DNA from: Escherichia phage WPEC4
Length of the DNA: 64,000 nt
Direction: 5' to 3' (one strand)
Sequence record: PV682947.1
A model generated the notes under the pieces. It did not search any database. It was given only the letters and a program-made list of their open reading frames with translations, and was not told the DNA's origin. Positions 19,005-19,809 of the stretch are shown one piece after another (within the stretch, counting starts at the first letter, position 1; each line of letters opens with the position of its first letter). The position numbers and the translations under genes were made by a program.

Positions 19005-19223
19005 ATGCGTAAATTAGTGAGCTTTAATGTTTCAATTCTTGTTGATGAACAAAATGAAGATGTTATTAAAGGTCTTGCAAATAAGATTGCAGGTGGAATG
19101 ACGGAAGCTGAAGTGTGGGAAGAATGTGCTCGACTTTATGAGGAAGGTGTTATTGAGGTCTTGGGGGATGAGATTAATATGGACGATGTTGTAAAAGTAA
19201 CTGTGGAGCGTATCAATGACTAA
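19005..19223 (+). CDS. hypothetical protein (72 aa)
   Basis: AAGGAGAAAACA ribosome-binding site. Confidence 0.5.
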   Translation: MRKLVSFNVSILVDEQNEDVIKGLANKIAGGMTEAEVWEECARLYEEGVIEVLGDEINMDDVVKVTVERIND

Positions 19224-19809
19224 ATCAAAACAAATCAATATTGCCAAAGAAATTCTTACCGTATTAAAGATCGCTGATCCTAATTCTGTCTTGGCTGGCG
19301 GTGCTGTTCGTGATTGGCGTATTCTTGATATTGCTGGACGTGATCTGGATTTCTATACATCCCTTCCTGCACATCGGACTGAAGAACAAATACAAGGATT
19401 AATTGCATCTGCTTTAATGGGAACCAATATTCGTAAACTAGGAAACAAAGAGGCTTCTGACAATTATGAAGGTGTTACTGGTCTTAAACACGTTTTTGAG
19501 TTTGAACGTGATGGTCAGCTTTGCAACCTTATGATTATGGAACCAAGCGTAATGACAACCTTTCTAAATGAGTTCGATCTGTCCATCTGCCAGGCTGCAT
19601 TTGATGGGAAGGATTGTTATTATTCTAAAGATTTTGAAACAACCTTGGAAACAGGGATCTGCTTCTTGCACAAAGACGTTAGAGAAGATGCCAAACATGT
19701 TATTAAAATTGCCACACGTTTCCCATATCTACGTTTTGTTAAAGAAGTGAAGGTTCCGCGTCCACCTCAAGTAGATACCAGATCGGAAGAAGATGATATT
19801 CCTTGGTAA
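19216..19809 (+). CDS. Nucleotidyltransferase resembling the head domain of CCA-adding enzyme/poly(A) polymerase (197 aa)
   Basis: LAGGAVRDWRILDIAGRDLDFYT compared with E. coli CCA enzyme VGGAVRD..DRD as recalled. Confidence 0.55.
   Translation: MTKSKQINIAKEILTVLKIADPNSVLAGGAVRDWRILDIAGRDLDFYTSLPAHRTEEQIQGLIASALMGTNIRKLGNKEASDNYEGVTGLKHVFEFERDGQLCNLMIMEPSVMTTFLNEFDLSICQAAFDGKDCYYSKDFETTLETGICFLHKDVREDAKHVIKIATRFPYLRFVKEVKVPRPPQVDTRSEEDDIPW

Follow-up and report, generated by a model that had tools for sequence, protein, structure and literature searches.

The nucleotidyltransferase gene of Escherichia phage WPEC4 lies amongst DNA-replication genes in the 64,000-nucleotide stretch of sequence record PV682947.1 analysed here, which is referred to as the window (all coordinates are on the plus strand, apart from those of a bidirectional hairpin). 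The open reading frame, 19216..19809, begins with ATG and encodes a minimal class II-like nucleotidyltransferase of 197 aa. Its start overlaps by 8 nt the end of a 72-aa ORF, one of three small ORFs (63, 55 and 72 aa; 18636..19223) located between the DNA polymerase and nucleotidyltransferase genes; ASO2A lists them as hypothetical proteins. The operon is immediately preceded by a family A DNA polymerase carrying an intein-like insertion (15255..18587), identified from a Pfam DNA_pol_A match, the annotation of relatives and mapping of the insertion, and the same replication module contains a T7 gp4-like primase/helicase (12149..13927), recognised from the ORF and the ASO2A annotation, with a homologous neighbour cluster matching PHROG 239. 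Directly 3' of the nucleotidyltransferase, a 130-aa protein (19855..20247) contains two beta-beta-beta-beta-alpha repeats in a Whirly/PUR/MRP-like fold, from which binding of single-stranded nucleic acid is predicted; it is a possible partner of the nucleotidyltransferase. It is followed by a 295-aa SSB-like protein (20264..21151), which ends in 12 residues, EPPMDFDDDIPF, that match the C-terminal tip of E. coli SSB exactly in a PDB sequence search; SSB PHROGs match no more than the tail of this protein, and it is labelled SSB in some GenBank records. A bidirectional terminator-like hairpin (21183..21206) closes the operon at the same spot at which terminators are annotated in ASO2A. The nucleotidyltransferase, Whirly/PUR-like and SSB-like genes are co-oriented within one terminator-bounded block.

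The motifs noticed in a previous sequence-only reading of this DNA, GGAVRD (residues 28-33) and DLDF (residues 43-46), are present in the ORF, and its description of the protein as far shorter than full-length enzymes is accurate, 197 aa comparing with 372-425 aa in the top five PDB matches. [quoted passage not shown] The associated head-domain signature is sound with respect to the motifs but does not extend to a curated Pfam match, as PF01743 PolyA_pol reaches 13.8 bits where 23 are required and aligns with motif A alone, while NCBIfam TIGR02692 scores 12.6 against a threshold of 438.8. Motif A (G28-G29-A-V-R32-D33-W34...D43-L-D45; 19297..19350), defined by conservation and alignment, comprises the nucleotide-binding helix turn and two catalytic aspartates, and the region aligns to class II CCA enzymes and PAP. 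Among 186 family members G28, G29, D43 and D45 never vary (100%), and R32 and W34 are retained in at least 97%. The Pol-beta superfamily pattern, hG[GS]...[DE]h[DE]h...h[DE]h on an alpha-beta-alpha-beta-alpha-beta core, is also observed. The h[DE]h element of this pattern suggests a catalytic role for E95 (19498..19500), located on the strand V-F-E-F-E, as a candidate third catalytic carboxylate, a position occupied by E in 59%, D in 11% and N in 13% of the 186 members. Invariant residues particular to the mini family are Q6, A10, W34, Y84 and, at 97%, K164. A degenerate, inactive fold was considered and rejected because the GG and DxD residues are invariant across the family.

The class II signature motifs that follow motif A are not conserved in the family. 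In these enzymes, RRD of motif B recognises the ribose 2'-OH and the triphosphate, and EDxxR of motif D is the amino-acid template which selects CTP or ATP. An hhalign comparison of the family with E. coli Cca alone aligned motif A only; a collinear alignment required a purpose-built class II alignment, and the hhalign probability beyond motif A is 44-76%, which is low confidence. At the motif B position (RRD-hT-h-N) so located, the window protein has E119-F120-D121-L-S-I-C125 followed by Q (19570..19590), the arginines being replaced and RRD followed by hTxNA absent. The family consensus here is x-F-[S/D/P], with F120 conserved in 89% and C125 in 80% of the 186 members. The motif D position (EDxxR...R..RF), placed by hhalign and conservation, is occupied by E157-D158-A-K-H161-V-I-K164-...-F169-P170 (19684..19725), with H161 substituting for the arginine of EDxxR. 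Across the family, residues 157 and 158 are variable, residue 161 is H (52%) or Y (44%) and is R in only 3 of 186 members, while F169-P170 is conserved. In contrast, RRD is retained in all nine genuine class II sequences compared and ED-x-[LV]-R in eight, the ninth (KpnK54) having DD-P-L-R. Body and tail domains are absent, as the protein ends approximately 30 residues past the first neck helix. Judged by its sequence, the nucleotidyltransferase is thus not a canonical CCA-adding enzyme: motif B is replaced, EDxxR is unconserved, body and tail are lacking and the Pfam score is below threshold.

The window protein belongs to an extensive phage family, matching PHROG 10174 'nucleotidyltransferase' (E 6.5e-63) and PHROG 1614 (E 3.5e-11). 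An exhaustive profile search detected 1,045 related clusters at E<=1e-3, nearly all of 175-220 aa and some of approximately 170 aa. The family is almost strictly viral, occurrence in cellular genomes being limited to 3 MAG contigs among 185,579 species. Ten longer members (254-400 aa) have no significant Pfam partner domain, and their extra length probably reflects start-codon miscalls or extensions of another kind. Several relatives carry the precomputed Pfam tag PF26128.2, and cluster members are named 'hypothetical protein' only. The literature on characterised phage mini CCA/nucleotidyltransferases yielded genome-annotation mentions and a single toxicity report, for the Klebsiella phage fHe-Kpn01 protein Gp22.

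The C-terminus of the window protein (residues ~178-197; 19747..19806) is a disordered acidic tail, recognised from pLDDT and from relatives, with the tip E-E-D-D-I-P-W resembling the SSB tip D-D-D-I-P-F. In the predicted structure pLDDT falls to 63 for residues 181-190 and 46 for residues 191-197. The likeness is one of sequence, four of the six residues of E-D-D-I-P-W being identical to the SSB tip and two conservative. The DDIPW tip is invariant, and the linker variable, in a set of nine relatives with 58-66% identity (A1 plus P0062), while the 83%-identical P0003 ends in DDSFPW. Within the window such an ending occurs in only two of 364 ORF segments, the nucleotidyltransferase and the SSB-like ORF. 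Acidic tails with a terminal aromatic residue recur in other family branches; the DDIPW tip itself is confined to a Phapecoctavirus-like clade, and most members stop directly after a KFPDY motif. The family as a whole therefore cannot depend on tethering as its central mechanism. [quoted passage not shown]

Across 49 lineages, the family tracks replication genes and not tRNAs. A DNA polymerase is encoded within six ORFs on either side of the nucleotidyltransferase in 28 lineages, and a T7-type DNA polymerase, primase-helicase or 5'-3' exonuclease within the same distance in 33; the neighbouring DNA polymerase and primase-helicase genes invariably run in the same direction as the nucleotidyltransferase gene. 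No recognised replication gene is found nearby in the other 16 lineages. Phapecoctavirus, phi92 and Klebsiella phage FKP3 share the gene order DNA polymerase, nucleotidyltransferase, 130-aa protein, SSB-like protein, and the SSB-like protein is constantly at position +2 from the nucleotidyltransferase in five lineages. In Zobellviridae the nucleotidyltransferase gene lies directly 3' of a 5'-3' exonuclease gene; sequence comparison of a Zobellviridae neighbour ending in DIPW did not confirm it as an SSB. Only 8 of 60 related loci have tRNAs within 10 kb, and neither RNA ligase or polynucleotide kinase genes nor RNA-decay genes are found among the conserved neighbours of the family.

The tRNA content of the window corresponds only in part to the initial description. 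The count of at least 12 tRNAs is correct in a loose sense, as ARAGORN detects ten, Rfam adds one (971..1055) and a sub-threshold tRNA-Sec-like gene (660..746) provides another. The tRNA-like gene said to lack an encoded CCA was not found, a genomic CCA following all 12 tRNA or tRNA-like genes. The nucleotidyltransferase gene is 17 kb from the tRNA array, and no second, canonical CCA enzyme is encoded within the 64-kb window. In WPEC1, a 100%-identical relative which is not colinear with the window, genes annotated as an Rnl1-like RNA ligase, a kinase-like ATPase and a phosphoesterase adjoin the tRNA array, and the nucleotidyltransferase gene stands outside this RNA-repair-like group at a distance of ~100 kb.

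Combined, these observations lead us to propose, tentatively and at somewhat less than even confidence, that the protein is a catalytically competent, miniaturised class II-type nucleotidyltransferase which is an accessory of T7-type DNA replication modules and not a canonical CCA enzyme. A role at the replication fork is more likely than tRNA repair because the gene sits among DNA-replication genes. Such an enzyme would perform two-metal transfer of a nucleotide from an NTP or dNTP to the 3'-OH of a single-stranded nucleic-acid end, a substrate which we infer entirely; candidates are ssDNA or primer RNA at forks or recombination intermediates, which would undergo untemplated tailing or capping. 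The SSB-like tip may dock the enzyme on proteins which bind SSB tails, be they SSB-interacting proteins of the host or the replisome of the phage, and the neighbouring single-strand binders could provide the substrate affinity otherwise contributed by the missing body and tail domains. In its full form, an unrecognised T7-type replisome accessory, tethered and untemplated, which reaches 3' ends via its SSB-like tail and its Whirly- and SSB-like neighbours and tails or caps them, this scheme is speculative and rather unlikely to be correct in every part; in that form, tailing or capping might, for example, shield phage DNA ends from host 3' exonucleases, contribute to primer processing or evade defences which sense replication intermediates. 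Several points argue against the replication-linked reading: phage gene neighbourhoods can mirror shared expression timing and not function, replication genes were not recognised near the gene in the 16 lineages described above, the tip ends in W where that of SSB has F, and all of the nearest characterised relatives have RNA 3' ends, and not DNA, as their substrate.

If position in the operon reflects only middle-gene timing, the protein could alternatively be a host-takeover or counter-defence enzyme which nucleotidylates a host target, be it a tRNA or RNA 3' end blocked in the manner of MenT, a protein or a nucleotide signal, resulting in host shut-off or in blunting of a defence that senses replication proteins. 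We regard this as possible, although on the unlikely side. Gp22 (182 aa), which is structurally similar to the window protein, is toxic when expressed in E. coli (PMC7291057); Gp22 is, however, a structural relative only, and the toxicity could be an overexpression artefact. The viral confinement of the family and its location among small ORFs of no assigned function are consistent with counter-defence, and a mimic of the SSB tip could target host SSB-tail binders. Phage SSB itself is reported to trigger several defence systems (bioRxiv 10.64898/2026.02.22.705581 and 10.1101/2025.11.11.687766). Conversely, a strong and widespread linkage to core replication genes would be unusual for anti-defence genes, which are usually variable and accessory. 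In addition, no class II-type enzyme is known to modify proteins or to synthesise signalling nucleotides.

Repair or synthesis of tRNA 3' ends, the function proposed in the sequence-only reading and in GenBank annotation, would put C, C and/or A back on tRNAs of the host or the phage whose 3' ends had been trimmed by host nucleases or defence systems. It is consistent with the structural proximity of CCA enzymes and PAP, with a motif A match specific to them, with E157-D158-x-x-H161 at the EDxxR position and with the 12 tRNA or tRNA-like genes and the RNA-repair-like genes annotated in WPEC1. Large phages moreover often encode genuine CCA enzymes (421 records). Host Cca is reported to be of importance to phage T4 (Morse & Deutscher 1976, cited in PMC7693777), and MenT toxins provide a precedent in that enzymes of ~190 aa can modify the acceptor ends of tRNAs while lacking both body and tail domains (PMC10435456 and PMC11541572). 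Nevertheless, every genuine phage class II enzyme examined keeps both the RRD replaced by x-F-x in this family and the ED which is unconserved in it; body and tail domains are missing and the Pfam and NCBIfam scores are far under threshold. The genomic context is equally unfavourable, as all 12 tRNA genes encode CCA, the array is distant, tRNAs are rarely close to related loci, ligase and kinase genes are absent from the conserved neighbours and the WPEC1 repair-like genes adjoin the tRNAs. Thus, the connection drawn to the tRNA set gained no support from the tests performed, and we consider tRNA repair quite improbable, while the accompanying caveat that other minimal nucleotidyltransferase roles are possible was well placed.

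A mini poly(A) or tailing polymerase resembling PcnB, which would mark RNAs such as primers, R-loop RNA or transcripts of the host for 3' exonucleases by extending them with short tails, is highly doubtful. Loss of the C/A-templating motif D would fit untemplated tailing with a single-nucleotide preference, and the Whirly/MRP-like neighbour could bind RNA; PAP I, however, also retains RRD and EDP-R and needs C-terminal domains and Hfq for RNA binding, conserved RNA-decay genes are absent nearby, and the SSB-type neighbours and tail point to ssDNA. Finally, a non-catalytic adaptor or decoy, in which a degenerate fold presents the SSB-like tip to sequester host SSB-tail binders, would accommodate the tip, the lost motifs B and D and a third carboxylate that is E in just 59% of the family but is barely credible, since complete conservation of GG and DxD and 97% conservation of K164 in 186 diverged members is the pattern of an enzyme, not a scaffold, and such a tail is missing from most members.

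If the replication-linked reading is true, the family is an uncharacterised enzymatic component of T7-type DNA replication, and approximately a thousand clusters labelled 'tRNA nucleotidyltransferase / poly(A) polymerase' are mis-annotated. If tRNA-end repair is true instead, selection of C and A works without RRD and EDxxR, which would surprise the tRNA field. The family is in addition among the smallest natural class II nucleotidyltransferase cores, and members of this size are therefore useful for finding out how small the catalytic unit of a template-independent polymerase can be, and might also serve as a compact tailing enzyme.

Comparison with known systems places the window protein closest to the class II CCA enzymes and PAP I (PF01743; PDB 1miv, 3h37, 3aql and 4wby), with which it has in common the N-terminal helix, the GGxVRD turn, the DxD strand, the head-domain fold, a collinear beta-hairpin and first neck helix and, presumably, two-metal nucleotidyl-transfer chemistry. 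It differs in being about half the size, in lacking the tRNA/RNA-binding body and tail domains, in its replication-gene context, in having x-F-x for RRD and S-I-C for TxN with EDxxR unconserved, and in falling below the Pfam threshold. Genuine phage class II enzymes are likewise phage-encoded members of the same superfamily with the same head domain. They are full-length at 347-422 aa, apart from short forms in which body and tail are likewise missing, Arthrobacter phage Racecar gp185 (250 aa) and Synechococcus phage B3 gp211 (243 aa). Unlike the window protein, they are 32-57% identical to E. coli Cca (N-terminal ~215 aa) and strictly keep RRD and ED-LR, and BLAST detects no resemblance between them and the window protein outside motif A. 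The stand-alone 'CCA-adding enzyme head domain' of S. pneumoniae (NP_344798.1; PDB 2la3, 191 aa) is bacterial and has no detectable similarity to the family profile.

The short 'tRNA/CCA nucleotidyltransferases' (140-215 aa) of Autographiviridae and other phages, including Gp22, Pectobacterium phage PP47 gp28 and Q19 gp24, ICP1 ORF223 and phi92 gp158, have the same fold (Foldseek against BFVD) and are encoded in T7-type genomes, many without tRNA genes. phi92 gp158 and ICP1 ORF223 are sequence homologues of the window protein, whereas the short Autographiviridae proteins are nearer to class II enzymes by HHpred than is the window-protein family. The MenT (DUF1814/AbiEii) toxins are also small 3'-end nucleotidyltransferases without a tRNA-binding body or tail, but the analogy is functional only, as the window gene has neither the MenT/DUF1814 fold branch nor an adjacent antitoxin gene; similarly, the fold and C-terminal helical lobe of cGAS/DncV-like (CD-NTase) or OAS enzymes are absent. 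Lastly, the tail of the window protein shares a disordered, acidic character and an I-P-aromatic extreme C-terminus with the tip of E. coli SSB (DFDDDIPF) and with the acidic tails of T7 gp2.5 and gp4, but has W for the terminal F and is carried by an enzyme and not by an SSB or helicase.

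The nucleotidyltransferase gene (19216..19809, plus strand) encodes 197 aa beginning MTKSKQ, and the GGAVRD and DLDF elements recognised in the sequence-only reading are present at residues 28-33 and 43-46. The window comes from a phAPEC8-like myovirus (Phapecoctavirus, Stephanstirmvirinae), the region being 100% identical in Escherichia phages WPEC1, WPEC2 and WPEC6 and 98-99% identical in ∼60 more. Because related records already label the gene 'putative tRNA nucleotidyl transferase / poly(A) polymerase' or 'nucleotidyltransferase', the initial proposal of a minimal CCA-adding-like enzyme coincides with an existing, purely homology-based annotation. 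The gene and its 'nucleotidyltransferase' label were thus known, short phage enzymes of similar structure have been noted earlier, and experimental work on the gene was not found in the literature. Several relatives (P0009, P0015, P0016, P0028 and others) carry the precomputed Pfam tag PF26128.2, and their clade may already be covered by a more recent Pfam family.

An exhaustive profile search for homologous short phage nucleotidyltransferases, the mini family, recovered 1,045 clusters at 50% identity (E≤1e-3); with few exceptions these are free-standing proteins 175-220 aa in length. Gene neighbourhoods were sampled from 80 IMG/VR loci and four GenBank phage loci, the nucleotidyltransferases being grouped at 70% identity into 49 lineages and the ±6 neighbouring ORFs clustered, with cluster identities confirmed by PHROG scans. 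The commonest neighbour is a family A DNA polymerase (28/49 lineages, a second polymerase family counted in), followed by a T7 gp4-like primase-helicase (23/49), HNH or other homing endonucleases (16/49) and a 5'-3' exonuclease (10/49). At least one core replication gene occurs within six ORFs in 33 of the 49 lineages, and polymerase and primase-helicase neighbours share the strand of the nucleotidyltransferase in every case. Across these lineages, the conserved neighbours within ±6 ORFs include no cluster of RNA ligases or kinases. A conserved gene order, from DNA polymerase through nucleotidyltransferase and ∼130-aa protein to ∼300-aa protein, is shared by phi92 (gp159 to gp156) and Klebsiella phage FKP3; in Zobellviridae vibriophages the nucleotidyltransferase gene comes immediately after that of the 5'-3' exonuclease. 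Two observations are new here: the mini family is a large virus-only clade, near-absent from cellular genomes (3 MAG contigs among 185,579 species genomes), and its genes associate systematically with T7-type replication modules, not with tRNAs.

In the window, the DNA polymerase gene (15255..18587) is followed 3' by three small ORFs, the nucleotidyltransferase, whose first 8 nt overlap the ORF before it, a 130-aa ORF (19855..20247), a 295-aa ORF (20264..21151) and a bidirectional terminator. The model of the Whirly/PUR-like 130-aa protein is confident (pLDDT 89.6) and contains two beta-beta-beta-beta-alpha repeats. The 295-aa SSB-like protein ends in 12 residues, EPPMDFDDDIPF, identical to the E. 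coli SSB C-terminal tip, so the phage encodes an exact copy of the host SSB docking peptide. SSB PHROG matches to this protein are via the C-terminal tail only, its N-terminal body belonging to a PHROG of unknown function. The polymerase itself carries a 244-aa insertion (aa 584-827; 17004..17735) which begins with Cys, ends in T-G-N followed by Cys and is missing from the ASO2A polymerase, elsewhere 99.8-100% identical; judged from these features it looks intein-like, and a Pfam search at E≤1e-3 gave no intein domain. Directly upstream of the primase-helicase (9959..11858, also 8714..9969) lie four ORFs, two of them GT1-like and glycosyltransferase-like with weak Pfam matches and the other two of unknown function, an arrangement also seen in phi92-like phages.

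The nucleotidyltransferase also ends in an acidic tail, ...PPQVDTRSEEDDIPW, modelled by AlphaFold2 at low confidence (disordered). The DDIPW tip is invariant among relatives of 58-66% identity and is DDSFPW in the 83%-identical relative P0003, the linker ahead of it diverging in both sequence and length. Acidic ...IP[FW] ends occur in only two of 364 stop-to-stop segments of at least 50 aa in the window, the nucleotidyltransferase and the 295-aa ORF. Acidic tails with hydrophobic or aromatic ends recur in other branches (EEFKI, WDDDKI, PDVFNF, DIEDFEF, NNIPF, ESIPY); the majority of family members are tailless. In bacterial and phage SSBs, acidic C termini are established as elements to which replication proteins dock (PMC5686142). 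That the enzyme of the window's clade carries an SSB-like tip, and that its gene neighbours those of a Whirly-like protein and of an SSB-like protein bearing the host's own tip, is likewise new. In the SSB-like gp156 of phi92 (7026..7973), DFDDDIPF is followed by a 16-residue extension, APIGLQYGRNFLHCF, and is not terminal, which may reflect read-through, a sequencing difference or a masked tip. In Vibrio phage 1.235.O (Zobellviridae), a 232-aa protein (3759..4457) encoded four genes upstream of the nucleotidyltransferase ends ...STDDGEDIPW, sharing DIPW with the window enzyme; sequence comparison gave no confirmation that it is an SSB.

The best-supported reading, which we hold tentatively, is a replication-linked, template-independent nucleotidyltransferase. 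The enzyme would act on single-stranded nucleic-acid ends at forks or recombination intermediates, adding a nucleotide to their 3'-OH; in the window's clade the SSB-like tip would tether it, and the neighbouring single-strand binders possibly assist it. The data show the fold, the active site, the motif losses and the gene linkage, and from these we infer the substrate and the tethering. A host-takeover or counter-defence enzyme co-expressed with the replication genes is conceivable if rather unlikely, and draws support from fHe-Kpn01 Gp22, a similar protein that is toxic in E. coli (PMC7291057).

Repair of tRNA 3' ends is doubtful; in its favour are the homology with CCA enzymes and MenT, a precedent for small nucleotidyltransferases that act on tRNA ends. 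The expected set of at least 12 tRNAs is loosely matched by 12 tRNA or tRNA-like genes, ten found by ARAGORN and two missed by it: one detected by Rfam only (971..1055, 39 bits) and a sub-threshold tRNA-Sec-like gene (660..746, 37.4 bits, gathering score 47), each followed by an encoded CCA. CCA is genome-encoded after all 12, the supposed tRNA-like gene lacking it did not turn up, and the window tRNAs do not require CCA to be made de novo. The array and the nucleotidyltransferase gene are 17 kb apart, the 64-kb window contains no canonical class II gene, and tRNA genes lie within 10 kb in just 8 of 60 mini-family loci. A weak, sub-threshold Rfam match to the RyhB sRNA directly past the array (2286..2340; 29.4 bits versus a gathering score of 55, E 0.011) is probably chance. 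In WPEC1 (PV659873.1), an Rnl1-like RNA ligase, an NK-superfamily kinase-like ATPase and an MPP phosphoesterase are annotated at 33535..35425 and 40052..41484, ∼5 kb away from the tRNAs; the nucleotidyltransferase gene adjoins the polymerase ∼100 kb from the tRNA array, on the opposite strand. WPEC1 and the window are not colinear, and WPEC1 has a shorter set of tRNAs.

The CCA-adding/poly(A) polymerase head signature holds for motif A (GGxVRD plus DxD) and at the level of fold, where the 197-aa protein is a class II nucleotidyltransferase; CCA-enzyme features beyond motif A fail. Sequence methods detect motif A alone, with Pfam PolyA_pol at 13.8 bits (cut-off 23; residues 26-65) and NCBIfam CCA_actino at 12.6 (cut-off 438.8). 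The AlphaFold2 model, computed from a 54-sequence family alignment, is confident (pLDDT 87, pTM 0.80). The profile of these sequences best matches a Planococcus CCA-adding enzyme (E 0.002, 46 residues), then PAP and the human and Bacillus CCA enzymes. A PAP-like RNA-tailing enzyme is improbable. Catalytic residues are invariant, G28, G29, D43 and D45 being 100% conserved among 186 aligned members, which makes a non-catalytic SSB-tip decoy very improbable. E95, present in the 197-aa protein, is likely the third carboxylate, and Q6, A10, W34, Y84, K164 and F169-P170 are invariant residues peculiar to the family.

Genuine phage class II enzymes are common (421 phage records, 32-57% identity to Cca). 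In a reference alignment of nine (E. coli Cca, E. coli PcnB and seven phage enzymes), motif B, RRD-[FL]-T-x-N, is kept in 9/9 and motif D, ED-x-[LV]-R, in 8/9, the exception being KpnK54 (DD-P-L-R). Low-confidence hhalign comparison of the two sets is collinear over Cca residues 1-150 (probability 44-76%, E 2e-5) and places E119-F120-D121 of the 197-aa protein at RRD, S-I-C at TxN and E157-D158-A-K-H161 at EDxxR. Among the 186 members the RRD position reads x-F-[S/D/P], with F 89% conserved, and at EDxxR positions 157 and 158 vary, with either H or Y at 161. The 197-aa protein has no body or tail domains. Taken together, these features indicate that the protein is very probably an active nucleotidyltransferase, but one that lacks the class II elements for ribose reading, C/A templating and tRNA holding. 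The mini family is a well-defined, testable and uncharacterised enzyme family, for which a surprising mechanism is not established by the present results, and its failure of the membership tests for class II CCA enzymes is reported here for the first time. Genuine phage class II enzymes, even the two of just 243-250 aa in the reference set, retain both the RRD and ED motifs, whereas the mini family does not.
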